Assembly: GCA_964504105.1 (NCBI GenBank) | Contig: CAZDDB010000001.1 | Coordinates: 1 to 53,257 of the forward strand | Origin: an uncultured Acidobacteriota bacterium | Lineage (GTDB): Bacteria > Acidobacteriota > HRBIN11 > JAKEFK01 | DNA: 53,257 nucleotides | Reading direction: 5' to 3' | Shown: piece after piece, positions 17,214 to 38,105 of the stretch | Layout of the letters: each line of letters begins with the position of its first letter | Position numbering within the stretch: the stretch's first letter is position 1 | The notes under the pieces: generated by a model | The model's database searches: none | Seen by the model: only the letters and a program-made list of their open reading frames with translations | Told to the model about the DNA's origin: nothing | Translations under genes and position numbers: made by a program

Positions 17214-17299
17214 TTACAAGCAGAGCTTATCTGAGCAAGCGTGAAACTGTAAAGTACCAATTCCAGGAATTTCACCGAAATTTCCAGATTTTGTCTTCT

Positions 17300-20528: not shown

Positions 20529-20530
20529 CG

Positions 20531-21043: not shown

Positions 21044-21097
21044 TCCTTTTTCTCTCACGCCGGGGGGAGGTGCGACCCAGAATGTTGCTTCTCAGAA

Positions 21098-21126
21098 ATC
21101 ATATAGAACGGTGGAAACGTTGTCAA
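21098..21126 (-). promoter_or_regulatory. candidate sigma-70 promoter for the S/L/M/molybdopterin-oxidoreductase operon
   Basis: Minus strand reads TTGACA-N17-TATGAT, about 55 nt upstream of the small-subunit start. Confidence 0.45.
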
Positions 21127-21142
21127 TTTAAGTGATAGAGTT

Positions 21143-21742
21143 GTGCGTATGATTGCCGCATTGATTCTCGCTGCCGGGGAATCGCAGCGGATGAATACGC
21201 CGAAGGCTCTTTTGCGGATCGGGACCGAGAGCTTTGTGGAGTGCATCGCACGGAAGGCAAGGGAAGCCGGCGCCTCAACAGTTTACCTGGTTGCCGGCCA
21301 CCACCATGAACGGATCAAACGAGAACTGAAGGGGAAGCTGGAAATCGATATTCTTTTTAACTATCGCTACAAGGAAGGACAGATCTCCTCGCTCAAGGAG
21401 GGTCTACGGAATCTTGCAACAGGGTTGACAGAAGCTCTCGTCTGGCCCGTCGATCAGCCACTCGTGACAACGCGGACGGTTCAAGTTTTACTTGAGTCTT
21501 ACCGGAATGAGAAGAATCATGTGACAATTCCGGTTTTTCAAGCAAAGCGCGGACATCCGGTGTTGTACGATGTCCGCGCGATACACTCTCTTTTGTCGCT
21601 TTCGCCAACGCAGACGGCGAAGGATCTGCAGAAGATTTACGAAAAAGAGATTAGCTTTGTAGATGTTGACGATCCGGGAGTACTTGTGGATATCGATACG
21701 GCCGAAGATTACCAGAAATACATCACAGATTCCGGTCGCTGA
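21143..21742 (+). CDS. MobA-like NTP transferase, probable molybdenum cofactor cytidylyltransferase (MocA-type)
   Basis: N-terminal AALILAAGESQRMNTPKALL motif. Divergent from the XDH-family operon. Start is GTG 21143 or ATG 21149. Confidence 0.75.
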   Translation: MRMIAALILAAGESQRMNTPKALLRIGTESFVECIARKAREAGASTVYLVAGHHHERIKRELKGKLEIDILFNYRYKEGQISSLKEGLRNLATGLTEALVWPVDQPLVTTRTVQVLLESYRNEKNHVTIPVFQAKRGHPVLYDVRAIHSLLSLSPTQTAKDLQKIYEKEISFVDVDDPGVLVDIDTAEDYQKYITDSGR

Positions 21743-22580
21743 TAGCCCTTGTGGTTGCGCGCCGGCTTTTGATCTGAAAGTCGACCGCCCTTCGTTTGGC
21801 GGCGTTCACGTTCTTGATCTGGATCACTTCTGCAAGGATGCTGATCGCGACTTCTGCGGGACTTTTCCCGCCGATCGGCAGTCCGATCGGCGCATGGATT
21901 CTGTCTAACAGGGCAGTGGAAACCCCTTCCTGCTCTAATTCGTGCCGAAACTGTCTGATCTTGGATTTACTTCCGATCAGGCCAAGATAAGCCACCGGGC
22001 TGTCGATGGTACGCCGCACAAGAATCTTGTCGGTTTCGTGACAGCGCGTTACGATCACTACATAGGTGTTCTCATCAAGGTCAGGAACACCTCGGAGGAA
22101 AGAACGATCGGTCAGGATTACCTGATCCGCCACCGGATGTTTTGTAACATCAGCATACTGGCTTCTGTCATCCACCACAACAGTTTGAAACAATTCACTT
22201 GCTGCCGCGAGTTTTGACAAGGCCTGGCCCACGTGACCGCCTCCGAAAATGACCATCCGTGGAAGAGGGTGGTAACTTTCGAACATCACGCGTACAAGGC
22301 CCTGGCAGTACATTCCCAATTCCGGTTTCGTAAGCCGGTACTCGTGATGCACCGGGACTTCTTCGCCCAGTACGGCTCGTGCATCTTCCAAGACTTCCGC
22401 TTCAAAAGTGCCTCCTCCAATCGTGAATTCGAAGGATCCGTCCTGATGAATGATCATTTTCGCGCCGGGCTTTTGCGGGCAAGACCCTTTTACTTCCGCG
22501 ATTGTGGCCACCACGAAATGTCTTCGTGAGTGCAACAGTTCCGCAATCCTGTGATGGATCGTTTCCGCATCGAGCTTCAT
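21723..22580 (-). CDS. XdhC/CoxI-family molybdoenzyme maturation factor
   Basis: XdhC N-domain pattern (VVATIAEVKGSCPQKPGAKMIIH) and Rossmann part (MVIFGGGHVGQAL). ATG 22580 is preferred over the TTG at 22625. The 3' end overlaps the convergent MocA gene by 20 nt. Confidence 0.8.
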   Translation of the reverse strand: MKLDAETIHHRIAELLHSRRHFVVATIAEVKGSCPQKPGAKMIIHQDGSFEFTIGGGTFEAEVLEDARAVLGEEVPVHHEYRLTKPELGMYCQGLVRVMFESYHPLPRMVIFGGGHVGQALSKLAAASELFQTVVVDDRSQYADVTKHPVADQVILTDRSFLRGVPDLDENTYVVIVTRCHETDKILVRRTIDSPVAYLGLIGSKSKIRQFRHELEQEGVSTALLDRIHAPIGLPIGGKSPAEVAISILAEVIQIKNVNAAKRRAVDFQIKSRRATTRAISDRNL

Positions 22581-22599
22581 TTTGGTTTTTGCAATTCCA

Positions 22600-23094
22600 T
22601 CAGGAGTGAGGGTGATACTTGGCAACGATCAGAGACCGAATTTCTTGAGGGGTCATCCCCTCCTTATCCATCTGATCGGCTTCGATCACTTCCTTCAAAC
22701 AGACGTCGCAGTGAACGGCATGATCTGTGACATAACAATCATGCAGCGATCCGTGACCGAAACGGTCGCAGTAACAAAAGCAGGGAAGCTGCGCCAGAAG
22801 TTCCGGTTTACCCTGAGCAATCGCGTATTCCGCCTGAACCTCTGACGGCACAGAAGCGGGCGCGAGAGTCGGGGTAAGCGGTCCGGCAGAGACGGGATCC
22901 TCCAGGTAAGGCGGCATCCGAAAGTTGTTGCTCGACGCAGGCTGTGGCGCAGCAGACTGTTCAGCAGTTTGGTTGACTTCCGGTGGGGCGCTTTTCGGTG
23001 TGGATTGGTAACGGGATGAGTCCTGAGTTCCACACCTTATCACCATGAAACCCAGCGCGATCATGACACACGGGAAAGCGATCCTTATTTGCAT
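22600..23094 (-). CDS. PCYCGC/CYCXC-motif lipoprotein-like protein
   Basis: Start assigned at ATG 23094 (MQIRIAFPCVMIALGFMVIRCGTQ, lipobox-like). C-terminal PCFCYCDRFGHGSLHDCY..HCDVC motif. The ORF-track extension to 23394 overlaps the divergent gene and promoter. Confidence 0.65.
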   Translation of the reverse strand: MQIRIAFPCVMIALGFMVIRCGTQDSSRYQSTPKSAPPEVNQTAEQSAAPQPASSNNFRMPPYLEDPVSAGPLTPTLAPASVPSEVQAEYAIAQGKPELLAQLPCFCYCDRFGHGSLHDCYVTDHAVHCDVCLKEVIEADQMDKEGMTPQEIRSLIVAKYHPHS

Positions 23095-23834: not shown

Positions 23835-24587
23835 ATGATCCTGGCCATTGCGAATCAAAAAGGCGGGGTAGGGAAGACCACCACTGCCATCAACATAGCT
23901 GCCTGTCTTGCCTCAAAAAAGCGAAAGACGCTTCTTGTGGACATGGATCCGCAGGCAAACAGCACCCTTTCTTTTGTTGATCCCGCGTCTTTTCGCCTTT
24001 CCGCCTATGATGTTTTGGTTGATGGAATCAACCCCGAAGATTGCATTGTGCCGGCAGGCGTTCCGAATTTGAGCCTGTTGCCGGCGCGTTTGTCGCTGGC
24101 GAAACTGGAGGCGAAGCTGATCGGGGAATTGGATGGACATTTTCGGCTGAAGGATCGATTGGGTCCGCTTCATGAACTCTATCCGTACATTATAATTGAC
24201 ACGCCTCCCACGCTCGGTTTGATCACGGTTAGCGCTCTTGTGGCTGCTACACACGTTTTGATTCCGATTCAGTCTTCGTATTTCGCGCTCGAAGGAACAG
24301 ATGACCTGTTGGAAACCATTCAGAAAATAAAAGCAAGGCCAAACCCGGCGTTAAACCTGCTAGGGGTGGCTATTACGCTCAATGATCGACGCACTACTCT
24401 CAGCCGTGATATTCAGGCACAGATCCGGCAGGTTTTTGGCCACAAAGTGTTCCGCACGGTGATCAGTAAGAGCGTGCGCCTGGAGGAGAGTCCCGCTTAC
24501 AAGGAGAGCATTTTTACCTATGCTCCAAAGTCCTCCGGAGCCATGGAATACGAACAGCTTTGCAAGGAGGTGCTGGCACGTGAATAA
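23835..24587 (+). CDS. parA: ParA/Soj chromosome-partitioning ATPase
   Basis: Deviant Walker A NQKGGVGKTTTAINIA, DMDPQANST, IIIDTPP. 250 aa. Confidence 0.9.
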   Translation: MILAIANQKGGVGKTTTAINIAACLASKKRKTLLVDMDPQANSTLSFVDPASFRLSAYDVLVDGINPEDCIVPAGVPNLSLLPARLSLAKLEAKLIGELDGHFRLKDRLGPLHELYPYIIIDTPPTLGLITVSALVAATHVLIPIQSSYFALEGTDDLLETIQKIKARPNPALNLLGVAITLNDRRTTLSRDIQAQIRQVFGHKVFRTVISKSVRLEESPAYKESIFTYAPKSSGAMEYEQLCKEVLARE

Positions 24588-25380
24588 AAGGGGACTTCCT
24601 CAGACGATTCAAATGAAGCACGATTTGCATTATGTGGACGAGTTGTTTCATGACAACGTGGGAGCGGTGGGAAGATACATTCCCGTGGATCAGATCCGTC
24701 CCAATCCATCCCAGCCAAGACAGATCATCGGTGATCTGAGCGAGCTGATAAATTCCATCAAGGAAAAAGGGATTCTGGAACCTCTTCTCGTTCGTGGGCA
24801 AAAGAACGAATACGAGATCATTGCAGGAGAAAGACGGTGGCGTGCTGCGAAAGAGGCGGGTCTGGCGGTTATTCCGTGTATCGAGATGGAAGTTACGGAC
24901 CGGGAGATGCATGAAATCGGGCTGATCGAGAATCTTCAGCGAAAGGATCTGACCCCGTTCGAGGAAGCGGAAGGACTCCAGGTGTTGGCTGAGAGGTTTG
25001 GTTATACTCACGTACAGATAGCGCAGGCGGTAGGGAAGGCGAGATCCTCCGTCACGGAAGTCCTTCTGCTAAATCAGATGCCCGATGAGATCAAAGATCT
25101 ATGTCGGCGGGCCGACATTACCAATAAGTCCCTCTTGTTGCAAGTGGCCAGGCAACCGGATGTCGCGAAGATGAAATCTCTTGCCGACAGGATAGCAAAG
25201 GGAAGTGTGACTCGTCAGCAGGTCCGGGAAGAAAAAAATCAACAGAAGAGCAAAAAGAAGCCGTTCGTTTATTCAACAAAAGGAAGTGGATACACGCTTA
25301 GAATTTACTTTAATAAACATAATGTAAGCAACGAAGAGGTCAAGTCAGCAATAGAAGAATCATTAACTAATCTAGAGTAA
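24580..25380 (+). CDS. parB: ParB/Spo0J partition protein
   Basis: GTG 24580 (VNKRGLPQ.., ParB-type N-terminus) overlaps the parA stop. ParB box motifs GILEPLLV and IIAGERRWRAA, plus an HTH region. Confidence 0.85.
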   Translation: MNKRGLPQTIQMKHDLHYVDELFHDNVGAVGRYIPVDQIRPNPSQPRQIIGDLSELINSIKEKGILEPLLVRGQKNEYEIIAGERRWRAAKEAGLAVIPCIEMEVTDREMHEIGLIENLQRKDLTPFEEAEGLQVLAERFGYTHVQIAQAVGKARSSVTEVLLLNQMPDEIKDLCRRADITNKSLLLQVARQPDVAKMKSLADRIAKGSVTRQQVREEKNQQKSKKKPFVYSTKGSGYTLRIYFNKHNVSNEEVKSAIEESLTNLE

Positions 25381-26154: not shown

Positions 26155-26499
26155 ATGGAAATCCTTCAACGTCGCCGCGGAAATGTCGTAATTCTGGATA
26201 TTCATGGAGCCATCTCGATGGGAGAGAGCAAAGAGAAGTTTGCGCAGGTCATGGACGAACTTCTTTCCGAGAAGAGTGTGAATGTCCTGGTGAATTTTTC
26301 AGGTATCAATTACGTGGACAGCACGGGCATTGGCGAAATGGTGGGATACTTGAACAAGTTTGTGGAGAGCAACCGTCAGTTGAAAATTTTAAAACCGCAC
26401 GATCGCGTCCTGAAGCTGCTCCAGATTACAAAGCTTGATTCCATGTTTGAAATCTACCAGGACGAGGAAGAAGGACTGAAAAGCTTCTCCCCTGATTAG
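26155..26499 (+). CDS. STAS-domain anti-sigma-factor antagonist (SpoIIAA/RsbV-like)
   Basis: 114 aa. Conserved phosphorylatable loop YVDSTGIGEMV. Starts 1 nt after the lpxH-like stop. Confidence 0.85.
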   Translation: MEILQRRRGNVVILDIHGAISMGESKEKFAQVMDELLSEKSVNVLVNFSGINYVDSTGIGEMVGYLNKFVESNRQLKILKPHDRVLKLLQITKLDSMFEIYQDEEEGLKSFSPD

Positions 26500-27079: not shown

Positions 27080-27427
27080 TTAGAATGAAGAGATGGCCGC
27101 TGCTTCGTCCTCGAAAACCTCGAAGATCCCCAGCAGGCCGGTGATTTTCAATGTATGGCGGACCATCTTTCCCGGATTCAGCAATTTCAGCTTTCCGCCG
27201 CTCTGGGTGATCGTCGTATAGCTCTTGACGATCGCCCCGATCCCTGAGCTGTCCATGAACTCCACCGTCTCCAGATTCAGCACTACGCGGTTGTAGTTGC
27301 GCGAGGTCAGATCGGCAATCGCATCCTTGTAACGCTGTTCGTTCGCCCCGACCGTAAGATTTCCGATCAGATCCAGGACTACAACATCCCCTTTCTTTCG
27401 TTTTTGAATATCGAACTCATGATCCAT
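27080..27427 (-). CDS. STAS-domain anti-sigma-factor antagonist (SpoIIAA/RsbV-like)
   Basis: 115 aa. Loop FMDSSGIGAIV with a phosphorylatable Ser. Confidence 0.85.
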   Translation of the reverse strand: MDHEFDIQKRKKGDVVVLDLIGNLTVGANEQRYKDAIADLTSRNYNRVVLNLETVEFMDSSGIGAIVKSYTTITQSGGKLKLLNPGKMVRHTLKITGLLGIFEVFEDEAAAISSF

Positions 27428-27582: not shown

Positions 27583-30009
27583 ATGGCTGAAGAAGCGAGC
27601 AGCAAAATATTTCAGTTGTACCGGCTGGCGTATTCGCTGATTTTTTGCCGCTCCCTTCCGGAGATCCTGGAAACAGCTACTACCAATCTTGCGAAATCGA
27701 CCGGCACGCGCAATGCGATCCTCTGGCAGTTTTCAGCGTCTCAGGCCAGCTTGATTCCCGCTCATCTTCAGCTGGAAGATAAATCGACCCGTACGCGCAC
27801 CGTTTCACTCGGATCTGATTTTCTGGGTGAGGTCTTTCGCAGCGGCAAACCACTTTTTCTGGATGCCGAAAAGTTGCAAGAGTCGAACAAACACGTTCAG
27901 TTCTCCAAAGAAACGATTCTGATCTCCGGCCTTTGCATCCCATTTAAAGGAAAGCCTGAACTTGAAGGGGTGCTTGAACTCGTAAATAAAGCGGAAGGGG
28001 CGTCGACGTTTAACGAGGACGATGCCGAATATGTGAGTAAGGCGATGGAACTGGTGCAGGTCGCAGCGGCCAACATGAAGTCCTATGAAGAACAGGCCCG
28101 CAACCAGCTGAACGCGATTACCAGACTGACGCTTCTGTATGACATAAGCCAGATCTTCAATTCCACGCTGGAACTGGGGCAGTTGCTCCCGATCATCGGT
28201 GAGAAAATTCGCGACATCCTGGATGCCGAAACATGCACCGTCTGGCTTCTGGATGAAACGGGAGAAAAAATCTATTGCGCAAAGAGTTCGGGCGCCTATG
28301 GAGAACTGTTTAAGAAGCTTCGTCCAAAATTGGAAGAGGACATAGCTGGAGAAATCATTCAGCAGGGAGAGGGGATCCTTTTGGAGGATGCGAGCGAAGA
28401 CGAACGCCTGTTGAAACGGATGCCGGATAAAGAGGAGCACCCCGTTGTTACCTATATGGCTTCTCCGCTGGAATGCAAAGGAAAGATTCTTGGCACGCTG
28501 GAAGTTCTCAATCGCGTGAACGAGAACCTCCCCAACTTCAATGAAGAGGACCAGTTTCTGTTAAACGATCTTTCGCATCAGGCAGCGGTTTCCATTCACA
28601 ATGCAAACCTGCTTCAGGCCGAACGGAAAGCAAAAGAACTCGATGCGTTGTTGAGCATCAGCCATGAGATCACGTCCACTCTCAACCTGGATCGTGTTTT
28701 GCTGACGATTGTCAATCAGGCGGCCTCGCTTCTTCCGTACGACCGTGCGGCGATTGCGTTGATGGAAAAGAATAAGCTGGAACTCGTTGCGGTTTCAGGA
28801 ATCATGGAAGTCGACAAGAAGAGCGAGCCCATGATTGATCTCCAGCAAATACTCCTGTGGAGTCTGCAAAGCGGCAAGTCGATGTACATTTCGGAATTCA
28901 ACGAGAAGATCGCTACGGATCGCGAGGAAACACGTGAAAAATTCAAGGCCTACTTCGCCCGCTCCGGTATGAAATCATTTGTCTCCATTCCTCTGAAAGA
29001 TGAAGAAGGGGAACTGGGGATCCTGAGCTTTGAAAGCGATACCGCTTATTTTCTGGATGAACGTCATCTTGAGGTTGCCAGCATTCTTTCGAACCAGGCT
29101 ACGGTCGCGATTCGCAATGCGCAGTTGTACCGCCAGATGCCCTTGATCAACATTATGGGACCGATCATGCAGAAAAAGGCCCTCCTCATGAAAATGCCGC
29201 AGGGCCGCAGGATGGCGTGGGGGGCAGGGATCGCTCTTGCTCTTGCGATTCTGATTCTTGTCCCCTGGAACATGAAGCTTGTTGGAGATGTTACTGTTCT
29301 TCCCGCTCGAAAGACACCTGTGGCGAGTCAGGTGGAAGGCATTGTCAAGAAGGTGTATCTGCGCGAGGGAGCCCGAATCAAGAAAGGCACCCTGATCGCG
29401 TCTCTTGAGGACAACGATTACAGACTTGCCCTGCAACAAAAGCATACGGAGCGAGATGTACTGCAGAAGGAGATCAGTCGCAGTCAAAGCATCGGTGATT
29501 CAGCATCTGCGAGGATGCAGCAGATCCAGTTAGACCAGGTTCTCAGAGAAATTGAATTTTACGAATACAATCTGAATGCCACGAGGATCGTTGCTCCCCT
29601 CGACGGTGTGCTGATCACCCCCAGGATTGAGGAAAAGACCGGTTCACTGCTCGTGAAGGGGGAGGCGTTCTGTGAAGTGGCCGACATGCGTTCGCCCCGT
29701 GCTGAAATCGAGGTCGAAGAGGGGGACGCGGCCTTCGCCGGGACTGGTCAGAAGGTCAGTTTAAAGATGAACGCATACGCTACGCAGAAATTTTACGGGA
29801 CAGTCAATCTTCTGGGTACGCAACTTGTTGCTCGAGATACGGAACACTACTATCGCCTGGAAGCGCAAATTGACAATCCGGACCTGCTGCTCAAGTCGGG
29901 AATGGTAGGAAAAGCAAAAGTGGAGGTTGGCTACCGCAGCATCGGCTATGTCTTATTACGAAAGCCCTTCCGATTTATATGGAAAAAGTTTTGGGTCTGG
30001 CTCCCCTGA
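27583..30009 (+). CDS. triple-GAF / TM / HlyD-family membrane-fusion-protein fusion
   Basis: RBS GAGG 7 nt upstream. About 530 aa of three GAF-like modules, TM helix MAWGAGIALALAILILVPW, then HlyD features (VASQVEGIVKKVYLREGARIKKGTLIASLED, coiled coil, IVAPLDGVLITP). Confidence 0.85.
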   Translation: MAEEASSKIFQLYRLAYSLIFCRSLPEILETATTNLAKSTGTRNAILWQFSASQASLIPAHLQLEDKSTRTRTVSLGSDFLGEVFRSGKPLFLDAEKLQESNKHVQFSKETILISGLCIPFKGKPELEGVLELVNKAEGASTFNEDDAEYVSKAMELVQVAAANMKSYEEQARNQLNAITRLTLLYDISQIFNSTLELGQLLPIIGEKIRDILDAETCTVWLLDETGEKIYCAKSSGAYGELFKKLRPKLEEDIAGEIIQQGEGILLEDASEDERLLKRMPDKEEHPVVTYMASPLECKGKILGTLEVLNRVNENLPNFNEEDQFLLNDLSHQAAVSIHNANLLQAERKAKELDALLSISHEITSTLNLDRVLLTIVNQAASLLPYDRAAIALMEKNKLELVAVSGIMEVDKKSEPMIDLQQILLWSLQSGKSMYISEFNEKIATDREETREKFKAYFARSGMKSFVSIPLKDEEGELGILSFESDTAYFLDERHLEVASILSNQATVAIRNAQLYRQMPLINIMGPIMQKKALLMKMPQGRRMAWGAGIALALAILILVPWNMKLVGDVTVLPARKTPVASQVEGIVKKVYLREGARIKKGTLIASLEDNDYRLALQQKHTERDVLQKEISRSQSIGDSASARMQQIQLDQVLREIEFYEYNLNATRIVAPLDGVLITPRIEEKTGSLLVKGEAFCEVADMRSPRAEIEVEEGDAAFAGTGQKVSLKMNAYATQKFYGTVNLLGTQLVARDTEHYYRLEAQIDNPDLLLKSGMVGKAKVEVGYRSIGYVLLRKPFRFIWKKFWVWLP

Positions 30010-30025
30010 TGTAACCCTGCCCAAA

Positions 30026-32080
30026 ATGCGATCGGATCTGGTGATCCGTCGGCAGGTCCATCAGAAAGAAGTCTATTACATCGTCAAAGATCCCCCGGCG
30101 ATGGCGTACTTTAACTTTCCTCCTTCCGAACACGAAATCCTGACGCTCTTTGATGGAAAGCGAACGGATGAGGAAATCATTGATGAATACAACCGGAGGC
30201 ATCCGTTGGAAATCATCGATGAAGACGGATTGGCAGCCTCGAAGGCAGGGTTTCGGGAAATGGAACTCCTCGAGATCCCTCCACGTGTCAAGAACCTGAT
30301 GCTTATGGAGCGTATCCGCGCTCAGCGGCAACTTCGAAAGAAAGCCACCGAAGGCGACATTTTTTACATGACGTTTTCCGCCTGGGACCCGGACAGAATC
30401 TTTAACCGTGTGATTCCGTATCTCCGCTTCTTCTGGACGCGCGAATTTCTTCTGATTTCTGCTGTTTGCATCCTGATGATGCTCGGAATCAACTATGTCA
30501 AATGGGAAGAATTTAAGCAGGGCACGATTGAACTTTATTCGTTTAGTAATAAATCGCTGTGGGAAGTTTTCGTATTTATTTTTCTGATGACGGCTACCGG
30601 CACGGTTCACGAGCTTGCTCACGGACTGACTCTGAAGAATTATGGCGGAGAAGTTCATCAGGTGGGTTTTCTGCTGTTTTACCTTACTCCCGCATTCTAC
30701 GCAGACGTCAGCGATTCGTATATCCTTCCGCGGAAAGAGCGCCTGTGGACTACGCTTGCAGGGACATATGCCGAGTTGATGCTCTGTTCCATCGCCTCCT
30801 TTGTCTGGTATTTTGCTGTGCCGGGAACGCTGATCTACTACTTTGCCTTTCAGGTGATTCTGTTTACAGGCATTTCTTCCTTCCTGATCAATATGAACCC
30901 CCTCATCAAGCTGGATGGATACTTCATCCTGATGGATACGTTGGAAATACCGGATCTTCGCGAAGAATCCTTTTCTTTCGTTGTTCGATGGGTCAAGAAG
31001 AATGTCTTCGGGTTACAGGTAGAAGAAGAGGAGCAGACAACGCGGCGGAGACGGCGTATTTTTATCACTTATGCCTTCTTTGCCATGCTGTACACTCTCA
31101 CAATCTACCTGTTGGTAGTGATCTGGATACGGAATATCTATCTCAACTCCTTTGGAAGGGTTGGTTATTTTCTGTTCCTGGTTACGGTGTATTTCCTTTT
31201 CCGGAAAGAAATCAAGGAAATATTTCAATTCGGCAAGTTTGTCTATCTGGATAAGAAAGAGGTGCTTATGAAGAAGAAACCTGCCATCTGGATCGGCGGC
31301 GGGATCGCGCTGATTTTGCTTCTGGTGTTTCCCGCGCACACAAAGATTTCGAGCGCTTTTGTTGTGGAACCTTCCCAAAGAGTGGAAGTGCGAGCCGGAA
31401 CAGACGGGTTTATTGACCAGGTGCTTGTTCGCGAAAGTGATTCCGTTCAGCCGGGCCAAGTCCTTGTCCGAATGAAGAATCGTGATATGGACCTTCACGT
31501 TATGCAGATCAGCTCCGGGTTGGAGCAGCGAACCCGCACTTTATATGCCCTGCAGTCGTTGGAAGACAAAGCAGAATATCAGATGAGACAGCGTGAGCAG
31601 AAACAGCTTCTGGAACAGAAAACGGAGTTGGATCGAAAGATTGGGCAGCTGGTTCTGAAGTCGCCGATTCGAGGAACAGTCATGACTCCCCGCGTGGATG
31701 AGTTGACCGGAACATATGTTGAAAAGGGCGTGCTGGTTTGCGTGATTGGATCGCTGGATCGAGTTCGGATCCAGATCCCGGTGCAAGAGTATGCGATAGA
31801 GGACATTTCGGTCGGTCGGGAGGTCGTGCTAAAACTGGACGCTTATCCGACGAAAACATATCCCGGTGTGGTGGCGGAAATCTCTTCTGCCGGAACAGAA
31901 AGAGTGGATGCAATCGAGGGATCCTTTGCGAAATTTATGGTAACGGTATTGATTGAGAATCAGGATCGCCGGTTGGTTCCTGGAATGAGAGGGGACGCGA
32001 AGATTTTGGGCCCGAGATATCCAACGATCTGGAGGATGGGCCGCGAAGTCCGCCGCTGGATACAGTCGCGTGTCTGGTGA
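30026..32080 (+). CDS. PqqD/RRE-like N-domain / site-2-protease (M50) / HlyD fusion protein
   Basis: HELAH and NMNPLIKLDG metalloprotease motifs in a multi-TM core. N-terminal YYIVKDPPAMAYFNFPPSEHEILTLFDGKRTDEEIIDEY. C-terminal TM plus HlyD unit. The start is uncertain: ATG 30026 is chosen, and in-frame ATG 29948 / TTG 29927 would overlap the upstream gene. Confidence 0.8.
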   Translation: MRSDLVIRRQVHQKEVYYIVKDPPAMAYFNFPPSEHEILTLFDGKRTDEEIIDEYNRRHPLEIIDEDGLAASKAGFREMELLEIPPRVKNLMLMERIRAQRQLRKKATEGDIFYMTFSAWDPDRIFNRVIPYLRFFWTREFLLISAVCILMMLGINYVKWEEFKQGTIELYSFSNKSLWEVFVFIFLMTATGTVHELAHGLTLKNYGGEVHQVGFLLFYLTPAFYADVSDSYILPRKERLWTTLAGTYAELMLCSIASFVWYFAVPGTLIYYFAFQVILFTGISSFLINMNPLIKLDGYFILMDTLEIPDLREESFSFVVRWVKKNVFGLQVEEEEQTTRRRRRIFITYAFFAMLYTLTIYLLVVIWIRNIYLNSFGRVGYFLFLVTVYFLFRKEIKEIFQFGKFVYLDKKEVLMKKKPAIWIGGGIALILLLVFPAHTKISSAFVVEPSQRVEVRAGTDGFIDQVLVRESDSVQPGQVLVRMKNRDMDLHVMQISSGLEQRTRTLYALQSLEDKAEYQMRQREQKQLLEQKTELDRKIGQLVLKSPIRGTVMTPRVDELTGTYVEKGVLVCVIGSLDRVRIQIPVQEYAIEDISVGREVVLKLDAYPTKTYPGVVAEISSAGTERVDAIEGSFAKFMVTVLIENQDRRLVPGMRGDAKILGPRYPTIWRMGREVRRWIQSRVW

Positions 32081-32183
32081 AGAAATCGTTTGGGGGGCGG
32101 GCCTCCGTGCCCGCCGAAGAAGTTAGCGGAATCCGGCAGGCAGGGACGCCCGCCCCTCCGGATCGGATTGTGGACAAAAGCAA

Positions 32184-32216
32184 AAGGCCATCCCGGAGGA
32201 TGGCCCTTGTTTTTTG
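32184..32216. terminator. bidirectional rho-independent terminator between convergent genes
   Basis: Stem GGCCATCC / GGATGGCC with a 4-nt loop. It is flanked by an A-run on the 5' side and GTTTTTT on the 3' side, so a U-tract is present on both strands. Confidence 0.7.
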
Positions 32217-32225
32217 TGCGTGTGA

Positions 32226-32507
32226 TCAGCCCACTCTTTTTGGATTGGCTCTCTTTGCCGCTCTCTTTGGATTGGCTCTCTTTGCCGCCCTTTTTGGATT
32301 GGCTCTCTTTGCCGCTCTCTTTGGATTGGCTCTCTTTGCCGCTCTTTTCGGATTCGCTCTCTTTGCCGCCCTTTTCGCCGCAAGTCTCGGGGCCAGCATC
32401 GGCGTTACTTTCGCCTCAACCGTTTCCACCTTGATTTCCGGCTGTTCCGAACGAGCCTGTCTCAACTGTTCTTTTTGTTCCTCGGTCATTTCAAATTTAT
32501 CTGGCAT
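32226..32507 (-). CDS. small acidic-N / basic-repeat protein (5 x AAKRANPKR), histone-H1-like composition
   Basis: AGGAGG 8 nt upstream of ATG 32507, a sigma-54 promoter about 40 nt upstream, and a terminator downstream. 93 aa. Confidence 0.7.
   Translation of the reverse strand: MPDKFEMTEEQKEQLRQARSEQPEIKVETVEAKVTPMLAPRLAAKRAAKRANPKRAAKRANPKRAAKRANPKRAAKRANPKRAAKRANPKRVG
32232..32380. repeat. 27-bp tandem repeat, about 5.5 copies (unit ctctttgccgctctctttggattggct)
   Basis: Read directly. Units start at 32249, 32276, 32303 and 32330, with partial copies at both ends. In frame with the 93-aa minus-strand ORF. Confidence 0.9.
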
Positions 32508-32543
32508 TTTCTTTTCCTCCTATTCGATCTTTGCACTTTGAGC

Positions 32544-32563
32544 TATTGCAATCCTCTTGCCAA
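32544..32563 (-). promoter_or_regulatory. sigma-54 (-24/-12) promoter
   Basis: Minus strand reads TTGGCAAGAGGATTGCAATA, matching TGGCAC-N5-TTGCW with GG and GC at canonical spacing. Confidence 0.7.
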
Positions 32564-32672: not shown

Positions 32673-34052
32673 CTAAAGGTCATATTTTCGGGAGAGGTAC
32701 TTCATCTGGTTTTTGTCGAGACCGAGGCTCTGTGCTGCTTTGGTTTTGACACCGCTGGCTTTTTGCAAGGCATCCTGAAGAAGCTGACGCTCGAATTTTT
32801 CTACGGCCTGATCAAAGGTCATTCCCGCATCAAGACGAATGTCAGGCGATCCGGAGTCACGATGTTCCTTTTGAATGTATGAAGGGAGATCCCGCGCTCG
32901 GATCGTTTTTTGGTCGCTCATGAGGATCAAAGTCTGCACCAGATTTTCCAGCTCGCGGACATTTCCTTTCCATGAATACGAAACCAGGGGTTGCAGGGCA
33001 TCCGGATCAAAATTCTTTACAGGGATACCATTCTCCTTACAAAACAGATGCAGAAAGTGATTCAACAGGGCCGGGATGTCTTCCGTCCGTTCCCGGAGCG
33101 GGGGGACATGAATCGGAAATACGTGAACGCGGTAGTAAAGGTCCTCACGGAATTGTTCTTCCTTTACTTTCTTTTCGAGATCTTCATTGGTAGCGGTAAT
33201 CAGCCGAACGTCTGCTGAAATCTGTTTGGTTCCGCCGATCCGATCGAACCGACGCTCTTGCAGGACGCGCAACAGTTTGGCCTGAACGGAAAGACTGATG
33301 GATCCGATTTCATCAAGGAACAACGTGCCGCCGTGAGCCAGTTCAAAGCGTCCCGCGCGCGCCGACACGGCGCCTGTAAACGCACCGCGCTCATGACCGA
33401 ACAGTTCCGATTCAATCAGGGTTTCCGGCAGTGCTGCGCAATTGACGCTCACAAACGCCTTTTCGCGCCGGCGGCTGTTGTAATGAATCGCGCGCGCGAT
33501 CAACTCTTTGCCCGTCCCGCTCTCCCCGCGGATGATCACGGTTGCGGGAGTATCCGCCACGCGCCTGATTGCATCGAAAACGCGCAGCATCGGCGGGCTT
33601 TGCCCGATCATGTTTTCGAAGGAATAGCGGTTCTGTAACTCCCGGTGCAGCCGGTCATTTTCCAGCTGGATCCTTTGTTTTTCGAGCGCACGACCGATGA
33701 TCAGCTTCAGTTCCGTCAAATCAAACGGTTTCTTAAAAAAATCGTAAGCGCCTGCATCCACCGCTTTCTGGATCGCCTTCATGTCCGCGTCACCGGACAT
33801 CACAATAATGATTGTTTCCGGAAGGTCTCTCCGGATCGTTTCGATCAGAGACATTCCTTCCTGGATCTTTCCTGTGGGAGGCATATGCAGATCTACAAGC
33901 GCCAGCTCCGGCTTTTCCTGCAATAGCAGACGTTCCCCTTCGATCCGGTCACCGGCCTCGATGACTTCGTAATCTTTGTTCAGGGCGAACGAGAGCTGCT
34001 GACGGAGAAGGCGATCATCCTCCACCACAGCAATTTTTTTATGTGGGAGCAT
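32673..34052 (-). CDS. sigma-54-dependent response regulator (NtrC family: REC - AAA+ - Fis HTH)
   Basis: Start at ATG 34052 (MLPHKKIAVVEDD..). REC domain with acceptor Asp in LALVDLHMPP, Walker A GESGTGKE, GAFTGA loop, and a C-terminal HTH. Overlaps the kinase stop by 14 nt. Confidence 0.9.
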   Translation of the reverse strand: MLPHKKIAVVEDDRLLRQQLSFALNKDYEVIEAGDRIEGERLLLQEKPELALVDLHMPPTGKIQEGMSLIETIRRDLPETIIIVMSGDADMKAIQKAVDAGAYDFFKKPFDLTELKLIIGRALEKQRIQLENDRLHRELQNRYSFENMIGQSPPMLRVFDAIRRVADTPATVIIRGESGTGKELIARAIHYNSRRREKAFVSVNCAALPETLIESELFGHERGAFTGAVSARAGRFELAHGGTLFLDEIGSISLSVQAKLLRVLQERRFDRIGGTKQISADVRLITATNEDLEKKVKEEQFREDLYYRVHVFPIHVPPLRERTEDIPALLNHFLHLFCKENGIPVKNFDPDALQPLVSYSWKGNVRELENLVQTLILMSDQKTIRARDLPSYIQKEHRDSGSPDIRLDAGMTFDQAVEKFERQLLQDALQKASGVKTKAAQSLGLDKNQMKYLSRKYDL

Positions 34053-34749
34053 TTTCTTCCGAAGGCAAATCAACGGGCAGGACAATCCGGAACGTGGTTC
34101 CCTCATTCGGGCTGCTTTCGACTTCAATCTTGCCGTGATGAAGCGCGAAGATCTGCTGGCTGGTGAACAAGCCCAGACCGAGGCCATTCTCTTTTGTGGT
34201 GATAAACGGACGGAACAGTTTGCTTTCCATAAAACCCTGGCTCATTCCGATGCCTGTGTCGGAAATCTCAACAATTACCCAGGGCTTTTTCCTGCGGCGC
34301 AACACTTTTGTCTTGACCCCCAGCGTGCCGCCTTCGGGCATCGCTTCTGCCGCGTTTTCGATGAGACTCTGAAATGCATTTTGTAAATAGAACGTGTCTC
34401 CCCAAAGCAGCGGCATCTCTCCAAGACTCAGTTCGATCTTCAGGTTCCGTGTCCTCCCGGAGGGGAGGGCATCCAGCAACCCTGCGAGGATCTGGTTGAG
34501 ATCCACGCGGACTTTTACCATGACGTGCTGCTGCTGTTCCTTGAACCGCTTCACAATATCGTTCATCTTGCGGATCGTGTCGCCCAAAACATCGAGCATA
34601 CTCTTCTTGAACAGTGGATTTTCGTAGTTGTCATCCATGTTTTGCAAGAGCGCGCTCAGGCGGAACGCCAGGTTCTTCATGTCATGGACGATCACGGAAT
34701 CAACAGTCTGTCCGACTGTGTTCTGACTATCTTTTCGTTTTCGTGTCAT
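34039..34749 (-). CDS. soluble histidine kinase core (HisKA + HATPase_c) without a sensor domain
   Basis: H-box SVIVHDMKNLAF, N-box LIENAAEAM, G-boxes DTGIGM and GLGLGL. 236 aa and no TM segment. Confidence 0.85.
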   Translation of the reverse strand: MTRKRKDSQNTVGQTVDSVIVHDMKNLAFRLSALLQNMDDNYENPLFKKSMLDVLGDTIRKMNDIVKRFKEQQQHVMVKVRVDLNQILAGLLDALPSGRTRNLKIELSLGEMPLLWGDTFYLQNAFQSLIENAAEAMPEGGTLGVKTKVLRRRKKPWVIVEISDTGIGMSQGFMESKLFRPFITTKENGLGLGLFTSQQIFALHHGKIEVESSPNEGTTFRIVLPVDLPSEENAPT

Positions 34750-34761
34750 CGATGGAACGGT

Positions 34762-36432
34762 TCAGCTGATTGTGTCCGGTTCTTGTTCGATTGCCGTGTA
34801 ACGCAGGATGAATACCGAAATATCATCCGACTGCGGTGTCCCCGCAGCGTGTTCCGCGACGGCCCGGAAAACGTTCGCAACAATTTCTTCCACAGACTTT
34901 TGCCGGTTTGCGTATAAAATGTTTTTCAAACTCTCTTCCCCCAGCATCTCCCCGCCTTCGCTGCGCGCTTCGGTGACCCCGTCGGTGAACAGGCAAACCA
35001 GGTCTCCCGGCTGAAGATACATGCTGATTTCCTGATACTTTGCAAAGTCAAAAGCTCCCAGAACGACAGAGGCAGAATACAATTCCTCTATGTGTCCATT
35101 CGCGTGGATTACAATCGGTGGATTGTGCCCCGCATTGACGTATCGAAGTTCCCCATCGCGCGAGATTGCCCCATAGAATAGGGTAATGAACTTGTCCGAA
35201 TTAGTGCGGAGAACAAGATACTTGTTCACACTCTCCAGACAGGCCGCGAGAGAGTCACATCGTAGTGCTTCCGCATAAAGAAACCCCTGCGCCATAGAAC
35301 ACAGGAGCGCGGCAGAAATTCCCTTCCCGGAGACATCTGCAATCACGAATCCGTACCGGTCCTCAGAAAGCTTGATCAAATCGTAGTAGTCTCCGCTGAT
35401 GTGACGGCTCGGAATGTTCTGGGCGCATGCCGAAAAAAAACTATACGCTCCGCGGATCTTAGGCAATAAAGTGGCCTGTATTTCATGTGCTGTTGCCAAC
35501 TCGGTCTCCAGACGTTCTTTCTCCCGCGATTCTTTCAGTAACCGCGCATTCTCTATGACTCCTGTCGCATCCGTGGCCAGCGAGTCCAGGATTCCCTGAC
35601 TGATCTTGGAAAAAGATTCCGTTGCCTTCTTACTATCCAGGTAAAGAGCGCCAAGCACATCTTTTCTGCCGACATAGGAAGAAGTGGAGAAATCGACTAC
35701 CTGGTACGACTGCAGGGGTAAACATGCAATGCTGCGAATTTCCAGATTGAGCATGCTTTCTGACATCACATACTTCTCCGGGCCCTGGACATCCGAAAGA
35801 AGAACCCTTTCGCCTGATTCCATCACCTGTTTGAGAATGGTCGTACTAATTTGAAACGCCTCTTCTGGAAGCGGCTGCTTGGCGCGGTTCCGGCCTCGTT
35901 GAAAACGTGGCTCTCCGTTCTTATCCTTCAGCACCAGGAACCCCCGTTCAGCGCGCGTAACTTCGATGGCCATATCCAGCACCAGGTCAAGGATTTCTCC
36001 AAGCGGGAGCGCGCCACTAAAGATTCTCGCCGTCTCCAAAAGCTTCGAAACATTCCGAAGATCGTTTCCCGCAAAGGACATGATAATCGAAGGCGTATCC
36101 GGCCCAAGTCCGGTATCCGTGGTGAGTTGATCTTCTCCCGTGAGAAAGACAGCTTGTGTTTCATTCCCGAGTTGAATCCGGTCCTGGTGCACGAGGATCT
36201 GGTTCTGGATTCGTGTTGCATTGACAAACGTACCGCACTTGCTTCCTTTGTCTACGATCCGGAATTTCTCGCCCTCCCGAATGATCTCAGCGTGGTGGCG
36301 GGAAACTGAAGCGTCATTGGTTTGAAGGTCATTCTCGCCACTTCGTCCGATCGTAAACCGGAGCGCCTCCAGGAAAATAGTTTGTTCTTCTCCCGTTGTG
36401 GAGCGAACAATCTTAATTCGAGGCTTCATCAT
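34762..36432 (-). CDS. FHA - GAF - PP2C(SpoIIE-type) serine phosphatase
   Basis: FHA: FTIGRSGENDLQ..VSRHHAEI..IVDKGSKCGTFVN. Central GAF-like module. PP2C: ISGDYYDL..FVIADVSGKGISAAL..FTDGVTEA. Confidence 0.85.
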   Translation of the reverse strand: MMKPRIKIVRSTTGEEQTIFLEALRFTIGRSGENDLQTNDASVSRHHAEIIREGEKFRIVDKGSKCGTFVNATRIQNQILVHQDRIQLGNETQAVFLTGEDQLTTDTGLGPDTPSIIMSFAGNDLRNVSKLLETARIFSGALPLGEILDLVLDMAIEVTRAERGFLVLKDKNGEPRFQRGRNRAKQPLPEEAFQISTTILKQVMESGERVLLSDVQGPEKYVMSESMLNLEIRSIACLPLQSYQVVDFSTSSYVGRKDVLGALYLDSKKATESFSKISQGILDSLATDATGVIENARLLKESREKERLETELATAHEIQATLLPKIRGAYSFFSACAQNIPSRHISGDYYDLIKLSEDRYGFVIADVSGKGISAALLCSMAQGFLYAEALRCDSLAACLESVNKYLVLRTNSDKFITLFYGAISRDGELRYVNAGHNPPIVIHANGHIEELYSASVVLGAFDFAKYQEISMYLQPGDLVCLFTDGVTEARSEGGEMLGEESLKNILYANRQKSVEEIVANVFRAVAEHAAGTPQSDDISVFILRYTAIEQEPDTIS

Positions 36433-36445
36433 AAAACGAGGCGAC

Positions 36446-37228
36446 TTACGGGGAGGTGGCGGCTGTCCCTTGACCGGGCTTTGTGCGAAGAATCACCTTT
36501 CCCGAAGTTCCGGGTCTCAGCAAACCTTTTCCTTGGCCCGGATCCAGCTCGACGATCGCCTGCGCGGTGCCGCTGGCTGCGTCAATCGTTGAACTGATCC
36601 ATTTCACCCTCCCTGCGAAACTCTTTCCCGTGGCGACATTCGGCACAAAATCTGCCTTCATTCCGGACGTGACTTGCGGCAACTGCTCTTCGGTGATCAA
36701 GATGCGCGCTAGAAGAGGCTCGAGGGCCGTGATCCGAAACAAAGGTGTGTTTTCGTCTTCCACGACACGTTGTCCAATCTTCGCGGATAGCTCAGCCACA
36801 ACTCCCGGGAAAGGGGCTTTGATGATACTCTTTTCAAATTCAACTTTTGCGATCTGATGCTGGGTTTCTGCCCGTTCATTGGAAAGACGCTTCAGATCAT
36901 ACTCTGATTCAGAAAGAAGTTTTTGATCGAAAAGTGACTTCGCTCTCTGATACTCCGCTTTCGTCTCTTCCATGGAGACTTCTGCTTTCTTCACTTCGAG
37001 AGCAAAATCTTCGTTCTGAAGTCTCGCGAGCGGATCTCCTTTCTTTACCCAGGAACCGCGGTCCACGAAAATCTGCTCGATGATCCCGGTCAGGCGGGAT
37101 TTTACTTCCACGTCGTTTTTGGTAAACAGTGCTGTATCAAAACGAAGCGGGGGATCCGCAGGAAAGGCCGCACCTGTAAGGAAAATGAATGTGAGGAGAG
37201 CAGGCAACCTTATATTTCGCAAACCCAT
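36446..37228 (-). CDS. short HlyD/RND-adaptor-like periplasmic protein
   Basis: Signal/anchor LPALLTFIFLTGAAF. Barrel-sandwich KSRLTGIIEQIFVDRGSWVKKGDPLARLQNED, a short coiled coil, and IIKAPFPGVVAEL. Confidence 0.8.
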   Translation of the reverse strand: MGLRNIRLPALLTFIFLTGAAFPADPPLRFDTALFTKNDVEVKSRLTGIIEQIFVDRGSWVKKGDPLARLQNEDFALEVKKAEVSMEETKAEYQRAKSLFDQKLLSESEYDLKRLSNERAETQHQIAKVEFEKSIIKAPFPGVVAELSAKIGQRVVEDENTPLFRITALEPLLARILITEEQLPQVTSGMKADFVPNVATGKSFAGRVKWISSTIDAASGTAQAIVELDPGQGKGLLRPGTSGKVILRTKPGQGTAATSP

Positions 37229-37337: not shown

Positions 37338-38105
37338 ATGACCTCCGAGCTTTTCGAGAAGTACCGGGTATCGTATAAGAGGGGACAAATCATTTTTTCC
37401 GAGGGAGACCTGGGGAACGAGATGTTCATCATCCAGAACGGAAAGGTCCGTATCTTTAAGAACATCGATAACTTCGATCAGACGCTGACTGTTTTGGAAA
37501 AGGGGGACTTCTTCGGGGAGATGTCTATTCTGGAAGGAATGCCCCGCTCCGCTTCCGCTGAATCGGAAGAGGATTGCGAGCTGATCAAGATCAACAGCGC
37601 GAATTTTGTCTCGATGATTAAATCGAACATCGAGATCGCGATCAGGATCATGCGAAAACTTTCGTTGCGGCTCCGTGAGGCAAACCAGCAGATCGAAAAA
37701 CTCATGCACGCTTCCACGGAGATGTTTCCTTTGCCCGAACCTCCCCCAGTGAAACAAACAAAGGCAGCCGATGCGCAGGCGTATCTCGTATCCGCGATGT
37801 CGGGGAAAACATTTTCTCTTGGCAAAGAGGAGGCGTATGTCGGGCGGGTGGACCGCGTAACGGGAGCTGTTCCTGATATTGATCTGTCGGATGAAGACCC
37901 CAAACGCTTTATCTCGCGCCGTCATGCAAAGATCGTCAAACAAGAGGAAGAGTTTCTTCTGGTGGAAGAAATCGGCACCGTAAACGGCACGTTTCTGAAC
38001 AATCAGAGATTGGCCACCGGAGCTCCTGTGCCATTAAAAAACGGCGATACGTTGACGTTTGCCAATATCACGCTTACCTTTTATCACACAGCGGCCGAAT
38101 CATAA
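37338..38105 (+). CDS. cyclic-nucleotide-binding domain + FHA domain protein
   Basis: cNMP-binding pattern GDLGNEMFIIQNGKVRI..GDFFGEMSILEG.PRSASA. C-terminal FHA: YVGR..ISRRHAKI..GTVNGTFLNN. Confidence 0.85.
   Translation: MTSELFEKYRVSYKRGQIIFSEGDLGNEMFIIQNGKVRIFKNIDNFDQTLTVLEKGDFFGEMSILEGMPRSASAESEEDCELIKINSANFVSMIKSNIEIAIRIMRKLSLRLREANQQIEKLMHASTEMFPLPEPPPVKQTKAADAQAYLVSAMSGKTFSLGKEEAYVGRVDRVTGAVPDIDLSDEDPKRFISRRHAKIVKQEEEFLLVEEIGTVNGTFLNNQRLATGAPVPLKNGDTLTFANITLTFYHTAAES

Follow-up and report, generated by a model that had tools for sequence, protein, structure and literature searches.

The window analysed here is a stretch of 53,257 nucleotides (nts) from an uncultured Acidobacteriota bacterium (assembly GCA_964504105.1, contig CAZDDB010000001.1), and its main subject is a pair of adjacent, co-directional genes. 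Gene 1 encodes three GAF domains, a single transmembrane segment and a membrane-fusion protein (MFP) part of the HlyD type; gene 2 encodes a RiPP recognition element (RRE; RiPP, ribosomally made, post-translationally modified peptide) fused to a site-2 (M50-type) intramembrane metalloprotease (site-2 protease, S2P), a further transmembrane segment and a second HlyD part. Judged from gene order in related loci, the pair makes up the membrane core of a conserved cassette that is widespread in Acidobacteriota. The initial annotation had described a two-gene core; the conserved unit is larger, with one more MFP (the third), a STAS protein, a sigma-54 activator and genes for candidate precursors that are driven by sigma-54. 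We propose, with a probability of about 0.55, that the two genes encode the membrane core of a machine that processes peptides under the guidance of their leaders and that is probably also the exporter of its product.

Gene 2 probably starts at the ATG at 29948, 78 nts ahead of the ATG at 30026 that had been chosen initially and that would lie too far downstream. No stop codon interrupts the reading frame between 29927 and 32080, close homologues conserve the first 26 residues that a start at 29948 adds (MSYYESPSD.YGKSFGSGSP) and the public gene model on the same contig (P0001) has 710 residues, where a start at 30026 would yield 684. Gene 2 would thus occupy 29948 to 32080 on the plus strand and overlap gene 1 by 62 nts. 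In an alignment of 28 homologues, down to 32% identity, H195, E196 and H199 of the HELAH motif are invariant, as are N289, N291, P292, L293, D297 and G298 of NMNPLIKLDG. The HExxH zinc site falls inside a helix predicted at residues 178-205 by AlphaFold2, and in M50 proteases the NxxPxxxxDG / LDG motif supplies the third zinc ligand from another membrane helix. The NCBIfam model 'daptide biosynthesis intramembrane metalloprotease' (NF041824) matches residues 18-392, which take in most of the RRE region plus the protease core, with an E value of 6e-59. By sequence, the protease half is homologous to the daptide protease MpaP but no equivalog of it. The model for YydH/EpeP (LiaK; NF058609) reaches 56.8 bits (E 2.5e-15), short of its cut-off of 225.

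Residues 6-78 of gene 2 are predicted to fold as beta1-beta2-beta3-alpha1-alpha2-alpha3 (strands 6-12, 15-22 and 27-31, helices 33-41, 48-58 and 66-78; predicted local distance difference test, pLDDT, of 88 for the isolated domain in AlphaFold2). When the isolated domain was compared with the PDB by Foldseek, eight of the ten best matches were RREs. The best was TbiB1 with bound leader (target-normalised template-modelling score, TM-score, 0.71; probability 1.0; E 0.03); CteB and TfuB1 with bound leader were also in the top ten, and SkfB stood at rank 15. A profile search of PDB sequences matched TbiB1 weakly (E 0.4). The assignment is made on the predicted fold and the homology to MpaP, not on profile thresholds, and the structural model supports the N-terminus being an RRE, a peptide-leader-binding fold.

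The AlphaFold2 model of the whole protein, built with a family alignment (pLDDT 81), consists of the b3-a3 N-domain, about seven hydrophobic helices and a unit made of a lipoyl domain, a 55-residue hairpin and a beta-barrel. In Foldseek this adaptor unit matches MacA, ZneB, MexA and AcrA (E ~1e-13, target-normalised TM-score up to 0.7), and in Pfam the C-terminal third exceeds the cut-offs of both HlyD_D23 (50.9 bits) and HlyD_3 (46.2 bits), which bears out the second HlyD unit proposed for gene 2. The RRE and the HlyD part are separated by seven hydrophobic segments, a number that would fit an N-in/C-out arrangement with the RRE in the cytoplasm and the HlyD part in the periplasm. The protein ends in a conserved basic/aromatic helix, RxxRRWxxSxxW (..RRWIQSRVW), whose terminal Trp is invariant in the 28 homologues.

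Gene 1 (27583 to 30009, plus strand) encodes 808 residues. The Pfam GAF model scores 123.7 bits, above its cut-off, over three stretches of the product, and GAF_2 scores 120.6 bits. One hydrophobic segment, AWGAGIALALAILILVPW, follows the GAF part and precedes the HlyD part, for which HlyD_D23 reaches 67.7 bits (cut-off 30) and HlyD_3 37.4 bits; the architecture of three GAF modules, membrane helix and HlyD unit first suggested for this gene is thereby confirmed. About 540 residues are cytoplasmic, and the periplasmic adaptor part has an alpha-hairpin of about 60 residues. A motif search of the window found no sigma-54 promoter upstream of gene 1. The C-terminus of the product is also a conserved basic/aromatic amphipathic helix (..RFIWKKFWVWLP), and in both proteins this helix may be a membrane-surface anchor that stands in for the usual membrane-proximal domain of adaptors.

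Gene 2 has more than 1,400 homologues, mostly from Acidobacteriota metagenome bins, where source names include 'putative peptide zinc metalloprotease protein' and 'efflux RND transporter periplasmic adaptor subunit'. With an alignment as query, a scan of a collection in which each species is represented by a single genome confirmed at least 583 stretches, and 80 loci were fetched; the same collection scanned with a single protein as query gave nothing. Synteny was then counted by tblastn of window proteins against 85 loci, with denominators that differ from feature to feature. A GAFx3-HlyD gene lies directly upstream of the S2P-HlyD gene, in the same direction, in 75 of 76 loci, so that the co-conservation claimed for the two genes is upheld. 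The sigma-54 regulator is convergent or downstream in 61/64 loci and a STAS gene lies within 8 kb upstream in 55/67. The short HlyD gene was found in at least 45 of 58 loci, a count that is too low because annotated cases, L002 and L084 among them, went undetected. The kinase was detected in 24/63 loci and the PP2C phosphatase in only 6/63. In Acidiferrales, the short HlyD homologue is placed between the GAF-HlyD and S2P-HlyD genes; in Thermoanaerobaculia and the window lineage it heads the regulator operon.

Candidate substrates are encoded next to gene 2. A small gene of 93 codons (32226 to 32507, minus strand) encodes a conserved leader, MPDKFEMTEEQKEQLRQARSEQPEIKVETVEAKVTPMLAP, within the N-terminal sequence MPDKFEMTEEQKEQLRQARSEQPEIKVETVEAKVTPMLAPRL, and then six AAKRANPKR units; the corresponding tandem repeat of 27 nts (32234 to 32375; 5.3 copies, 92% matches) was detected by Tandem Repeats Finder. 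A sigma-54 (-24/-12) promoter, TGGCAAGAGGATTGC, lies at 32548 to 32562 on the minus strand, 40 nts upstream of the ATG. It has one mismatch to TGGCAC-N5-TTGC and is one of only two sites in the whole window matching TGG[CT][AC]N6TTGC[AT]; a GGAGG ribosome-binding site stands between it and the ATG. Between the small gene and the convergent gene 2, a bidirectional hairpin resembling an intrinsic terminator (32183 to 32208) has, on the minus strand, an 11-bp stem and a T-rich tail immediately past the stop of the small open reading frame (ORF) and, on the plus strand, an 8-bp stem plus a T-run. With its own promoter, ribosome-binding site and terminator, the small gene is, as read from the sequence, a complete transcription unit. 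An ORF of 154 codons at 32077 to 32541 (plus strand) was considered as a third gene of the operon and rejected; it overlaps the stop of gene 2 and was judged spurious because it is of low complexity, (LFGLALFAA)n, runs along the opposite strand of the repeat gene and matches no family. Two metagenome proteins (P0176 and P0177) are 100% identical to the window leader with 2-3 repeats only, which suggests repeat-number polymorphism or assembly collapse. Many homologues come from short contigs (0.5-1.3 kb), as though assembly stops at the repeats. An exact-sequence look-up of the 93-residue product found it absent from a protein collection that holds its neighbours; since this look-up also missed a called homologue, L001, it is weak evidence only for the gene being unannotated.

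The small gene has counterparts in most loci. Among 66 loci (window included) with a gap between the gene 2 homologue and the convergent regulator, 60 have in this gap, on the strand of the regulator, a sigma-54 motif TGG-N8-TTGC and after it a Shine-Dalgarno sequence with a small ORF (18 codons or more); by arithmetic, this motif is expected by chance about 0.06 times per kb per strand. Homologues of the small gene product, each with the leader and a hypervariable repeat part, occupy the same position in 24 related loci, and a profile of the leader retrieved 154 small hypothetical proteins. This first family occurs in the window lineage, Thermoanaerobaculia and Blastocatellia. Its leader reads MA.EV+I.LT.EQK.KIK.ATG....I+V..LG.NPA..P (core IxLTxEQKxKIKxATG...V) and is followed by tandem repeats of 5-12 residues that range from basic (AAKRANPKR, MAKKAAPKQI) to acidic (ADTSIES, AQDLS, GDQESLRA); some loci have two or three such genes, each with one promoter. 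The Acidiferrales family consists of peptides of 22-40 residues, encoded in arrays of 1-4, with MAKKTLKKSKKIEATKPL or ..GKKLEKKxPL followed by 5-10 variable residues. NP or KPL recurs at the boundaries of repeat units in some lineages, not in all, and the C-terminal residues differ among the precursors. Neither leader type is matched by any Pfam or NCBIfam model. The initial proposal that gene 2 encodes a peptide-recognising protease is strongly supported by these neighbouring candidate substrate genes.

The S2P-HlyD architecture extends beyond these loci. Searched by itself, the RRE-protease half has matches in 1,299 clusters (formed at 50% identity) with E <= 1e-30, and most of the top matches have 680-860 residues, that is, are adaptor-fused; their names include 'multidrug resistance efflux pump'. 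In a Planctomycetota bin (L090), S2P-HlyD, short HlyD and GAF-HlyD genes occur together and a Crp-type regulator binding cyclic nucleotide monophosphate (cNMP) replaces the sigma-54 one. Directly after its S2P-HlyD gene lies a gene for an acidic 'PDGS' repeat protein of 1491 residues (L090:10957-15432), which has no classical signal peptide and begins MSEQKTKGKKKVSGIDVGKKKLEDRIAP, with a Lys-rich ..KKKLEDRIAP leader. In L093, S2P-HlyD and a LuxR-type regulator come after three small ORFs, whose products have ..EELEQRIAPS.. leaders and cores rich in Gly, Asn and Ser; in L091, S2P-HlyD is accompanied by a PAS kinase / LuxR pair, and an ORF of 87 codons with ..LEIERLEPRIAPGG.. lies ahead of them. 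LEPRIAP and the L090 leader may resemble the 'LEPR-XLL' N-terminal motif of large planctomycete proteins, which is a tentative lead; no NCBIfam model of any kind matched these leaders. One metagenome contig (L092) carries a trio of long adaptor, S2P-HlyD and short HlyD. In this single case a SecA-like gene of 619 codons (L092:3899-5758; SecA_DEAD, PP_bind, P-loop_SecA) lies directly upstream of the trio, a possible hint at an energy source.

The RRE-S2P half of gene 2 is a known architecture, since MpaP of daptide biosynthesis, an RRE fused to an S2P, has been described functionally as the enzyme that removes the leader (Ren et al. 2023, 10.1101/2023.03.08.531785). The remark in the initial annotation that no functional description is known therefore holds for the MFP fusion and the GAF partner and not for RRE-S2P. 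MpaP and gene 2 share the N-terminal RRE and the site-2-type HExxH membrane protease. Daptide precursors carry the leader motif ELExMEAP and end in an invariant Thr, and their clusters encode a PLP-aminotransferase, an alcohol dehydrogenase dependent on NAD(P), a SAM-methyltransferase and a conserved gene without recognisable similarity (10.1101/2023.03.08.531785). The neighbouring short ORFs of the distant relatives of gene 2 have a similar leader box, ELExRIAP. In contrast, the cassette lacks both the ABC transporters of daptide clusters and the invariant C-terminal Thr of their precursors, and no daptide tailoring enzyme was found within 10 kb in the window or in the loci with annotated neighbours. 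Gene 2 also differs from MpaP by its C-terminal HlyD domain and by the company of two more HlyD proteins, one of them fused to GAFx3.

Other systems share parts of this design. EpeP is thought to cleave and export (PMC10885120). As gene 2 would be, YydH/EpeP is an M50-type membrane metalloprotease with a small ribosomal peptide as its dedicated target, and KEGG yydH is the name given by JGI to proteins of the gene 2 type; however, YydH/EpeP has neither RRE nor HlyD fusion, its similarity to gene 2 is weak, and Pfam searches found no radical-SAM epimerase and no YydIJ-type ABC transporter in the cassette. Bacteriocin and microcin exporters (CvaAB-TolC, ComAB) combine a peptidase-containing ABC transporter with an HlyD-family accessory protein and, in diderms, TolC. 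Their logic of leader-bearing peptide, membrane leader peptidase and HlyD-family adaptor is that of the cassette, which differs in having an RRE-S2P metalloprotease instead of a C39 cysteine peptidase, no ABC ATPase/permease, three adaptor paralogs and precursors without a double-glycine leader. The adaptors MacA, MexA, AcrA and ZneB share the predicted fold of lipoyl domain, alpha-hairpin (~55 residues in gene 2) and beta-barrel; those of the cassette lack a linked outer-membrane factor and cognate pump, carry a protease or cytoplasmic GAF domains as fusion partners and, in gene 2, seem to have the basic/aromatic C-terminal helix in place of the membrane-proximal domain. In AgrB/AgrD and Eep/RseP, as would be the case here, an integral-membrane protease matures a small ribosomal peptide and the gene is under two-component control, but gene 2 has no sequence relationship to AgrB, and Eep/RseP lack RRE and HlyD parts. 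Taken singly, RRE-S2P leader peptidases are known, as are HlyD adaptors and the export of peptides by leader-dependent routes. In the literature searched and the curated models we found no description of the fusion of this protease to an adaptor, of its obligate partnership with a GAFx3-adaptor and a third adaptor, of an arrangement without a transporter, or of sigma-54-driven hypervariable (often tandem-repeat) precursors.

In the machine that we propose, the cytoplasmic RRE of gene 2 would bind the leader of the small gene product, and the HExxH / NPxxxDG site, which would face the cytoplasmic side of the membrane, would remove the leader and perhaps also cut between repeats. In the periplasm, the adaptor parts of all three HlyD proteins (gene 2, gene 1 and short HlyD) would assemble around the protease and either hand the product to an outer-membrane channel encoded elsewhere or keep it in the periplasm. 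The three cytoplasmic GAF domains of gene 1 would link the assembly to an intracellular ligand or partner, and the pair of kinase and sigma-54 regulator, together with STAS (and PP2C in the window lineage), would set the transcription of the precursors.

A number of observations weigh against this proposal. The M50 core put forward for gene 2 is sustained by its intact motifs, their invariance and the NF041824 match, and not by Pfam: Peptidase_M50 (PF02163) remains sub-threshold (23.3 vs 27.2 bits) and its match spans profile positions 2-103 of 221 only. NF041824 itself scores 200 bits for the protease half, against a cut-off of 300. Similarly, the PqqD/RRE-like N-terminus that had been claimed stands on its predicted fold and PDB matches, while PqqD profiles fall below threshold on this domain (E 0.0015-0.08 overall): the NCBIfam PqqD model gives E 0.078 for gene 2 and the Pfam model matches 4/19 family members, with a best E of 0.0015. 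On the side of the substrates, VEAKVTP (window lineage), LGxNPAxxP (Thermoanaerobaculia) and KKLEKKxPL (Acidiferrales) resemble ELExRIAP only loosely, and the Lys/Ala-rich repeats give matches, compositional only, to histone-H1-like models. The cassette contains a leader peptidase and no modifying enzyme, so it is no RiPP cluster in the strict sense. Leader binding, cleavage and export are all steps that we infer. Export is the weakest of them, as neither an energy source nor an inner-membrane channel is apparent; nor is there a linked outer-membrane factor. Finally, the leader is not exclusive to the S2P-HlyD machine, as the family-1 leader also occurs beside radical-SAM or FliB_C-like genes. 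Peptides of 45-55 residues at L086:8001-8153, L088:5299-5448 and L089:6619-6768, with the leader IRIELTEEQKAQIKAATGK..ELEERIAP and a variable tail of 4-9 residues, adjoin radical-SAM/HemN_C or FliB_C-like genes, and S2P-HlyD is absent from their vicinity. They may form a RiPP-like family of their own, so far undescribed, with a shared leader type.

How far the product travels, and whether the small proteins are substrates at all, can be read in several ways. A far-reaching reading is secretion without a pump, in which the RRE-protease takes the place of an ABC, RND or MFS transporter at the base of a three-adaptor assembly with a GAFx3 sensor and passes on LExRIAP-type-led cargo from 5 residues to 1491 residues long, including hypervariable repeat polymers; we regard this as rather unlikely, and the chance that the cassette is a genuinely new secretion route is a minority one. 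The adaptors could instead be ordinary parts of a tripartite-efflux or type-I-like system whose pump and duct are encoded elsewhere, with the protease as an accessory leader peptidase in place of a C39 domain. MFP folds or profiles are bona fide in all three proteins, which databases call efflux adaptors, and daptide clusters use ABC transporters (10.1101/2023.03.08.531785). Nevertheless, Pfam scans of all large ORFs of the 53 kb window found no ABC exporter, RND, MFS or OEP/TolC family member, as had first been noted; the sole ABC_tran match is UvrA, three ORFs have no Pfam match and two of these found nothing among PDB sequences. Across the related loci, an ABC exporter and outer-membrane factor are far from constant companions of the pair: a MacB-type ABC and FtsX pair is adjacent in three of 85 loci and the other 82 have no adjacent exporter. 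The ABC matches upstream of STAS in about 20 Acidiferrales loci, considered as exporters, proved to be the PstSCAB-PhoU phosphate importer, an unrelated neighbour, and an RND pump near L002, considered as a cognate pump, has its own adaptor. No OEP family member occurs in the nine loci with Pfam-annotated neighbours, where the same genome could hold one elsewhere. Known pumps also do not show a pattern of three MFP paralogs that are conserved together and of which two carry fused non-transporter modules, and we consider this explanation improbable.

Signalling offers two further explanations. As a specialisation of the processing machine, the cassette might form an autoinducing circuit of the quorum-sensing type, in which peptides are cut, released, sensed and fed back to their own sigma-54 promoters (compare AgrB/AgrD/AgrC/AgrA). 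M50 proteases such as Eep mature pheromones in Gram-positive bacteria, the sigma-54 promoter of every peptide gene adjoins a two-component sigma-54 activator, and distant S2P-HlyD genes are paired with other two-component systems (PAS histidine kinase and LuxR). Moreover, each Acidiferrales locus has 1-3 paralogous peptides, which combine constant leaders with hypervariable tails that differ between close relatives. This circuit nevertheless seems unlikely: the kinase has no sensor or membrane domain, repeat cores of 93-227 residues and a cargo of 1491 residues are unlike pheromones, no receptor was identified, and it is adjacency that points to control of the promoters by the neighbouring regulator. 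A trans-envelope signalling device, in which the S2P would cleave a regulator in the membrane, the HlyD and GAF parts would sense envelope and cytoplasm, and the small proteins would be effectors and not substrates, would agree with the signalling role of classical S2Ps, with a cassette rich in GAFx3, STAS, PP2C, kinase, sigma-54 regulator and cNMP-FHA protein, and with the need of a sensor-less soluble kinase for an input partner. We find it quite unlikely, given that the cassette has neither a conserved anti-sigma factor nor a conserved regulator tethered to the membrane, that the protease bears a leader-binding fold and groups with the RiPP leader peptidases MpaP and YydH/EpeP, not with RseP/SpoIVFB, and that leader-bearing genes accompany S2P-HlyD even where the regulators differ. 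Least probable is that the small repeat proteins are intracellular, as histone-H1-like nucleoid proteins or disordered polymers that are merely co-regulated neighbours, with another substrate for S2P-HlyD. The histone H1-like matches behind it are sub-threshold (E 3.6e-8, 33.9 bits vs a cut-off of 80); the repeats of sister lineages run from basic to strongly acidic while the leader is conserved, the Acidiferrales versions are peptides of 22-40 residues only, and position, strand and promoter relative to S2P-HlyD are kept in the 60 of 66 loci counted above.

Acidobacteriota are among the most abundant soil bacteria and, to our knowledge, little is known of their signalling or competition. Databases label the cassette proteins 'efflux adaptor' or 'multidrug pump', and the cassette brings with it many peptide genes, most of them uncalled, that are driven by sigma-54 and combine a conserved leader with a fast-evolving core. 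If the proposed processing machine is correct, these genes would be a new source of secreted or signalling peptides that can be mined by leader, promoter and protease; the leader peptidase, with its apparently broad cargo tolerance, would be of use in peptide engineering; and the assembly would be a test case for membrane fusion proteins working without a pump.

The regulatory genes of the cassette flank the pair on both sides. Divergent from gene 1, at 27080 to 27427 (minus strand), lies a STAS gene of the anti-sigma-factor-antagonist type with a DSSG phospho-serine motif (Pfam STAS 73.7 bits; TIGR00377 79.7 bits, above cut-off) and a sigma-70-like promoter at 27561-27533; a second STAS gene is found at 26155-26499. 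Convergent downstream of gene 2 is a minus-strand operon for the short HlyD protein, an FHA-GAF-PP2C protein, a histidine-kinase core and the sigma-54 response regulator. The regulator (32673 to 34052; receiver, AAA+ Sigma54_activat, HTH_8) scores 247 bits with Pfam Sigma54_activat and also matches Response_reg and HTH_8; its closest NCBIfam model is PEP_resp_reg (458 bits, below the cut-off of 502.6). Its start was placed at about 34052 because the receiver begins at residue 52 of a 504-residue ORF that would otherwise overlap the kinase gene. It is likely to be the activator of the small gene's promoter. The kinase (34039 to 34749, minus strand) is a soluble core with an H-box (VHDMKN) and Pfam HATPase_c and without a sensor domain, and it matches the C-terminus of an NCBIfam PrsK-like model at 148 bits, below cut-off. 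The FHA-GAF-PP2C (SpoIIE-type) phosphatase (34762 to 36432, minus strand; Pfam SpoIIE 160.9, FHA 68.9 and GAF 31.4 bits) is a lineage-specific accessory. Of the parts of a partner-switching system, STAS with DSSG and SpoIIE-type PP2C are present; the HATPase_c protein resembles an H-box histidine kinase rather than RsbW.

The third, short HlyD protein (36446 to 37228, minus strand; 260 residues) has an N-terminal signal or anchor and matches Pfam HlyD_D23 (78.7 bits) and HlyD_3 (66.7 bits). It is the only one of the three HlyD proteins that passes TIGR01730 RND_mfp (145 vs 94.9 bits), and the three are about 20-26% identical in pairwise comparison, with hairpins predicted to be of similar length. 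Divergent from it, a gene at 37338 to 38105 (plus strand) encodes a protein with cNMP_binding (87.3 bits) and FHA (49 bits) domains in Pfam; it is conserved only in the closest locus, L003, and is a possible accessory of uncertain membership.

The density of FHA proteins near the cassette is unusual. Besides the cNMP-FHA (37338-38105, plus strand) and FHA-GAF-PP2C (34762-36432, minus strand) proteins, the window encodes an FHA-zinc-ribbon-RDD protein, and a Ser/Thr kinase with TPR repeats is encoded too (the remaining FHA/kinase genes being at 41083-42300 and 10083-13481, both on the plus strand); this suggests input by Ser/Thr phosphorylation. Just upstream of the cassette lie a ParA/ParB partition pair (23835-25380, plus strand) and then an LpxH-like phosphoesterase and the second STAS gene. 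A molybdenum hydroxylase cluster at 15210-22625 comprises Fer2, MoCoBD and FAD_binding_5 subunits, a MobA-like NTP transferase and XdhC. A similar cluster at L086:2058-6832 adjoins the pair of leader peptide and radical-SAM genes, and this shared neighbourhood may be a coincidence of Acidobacteriota gene order.

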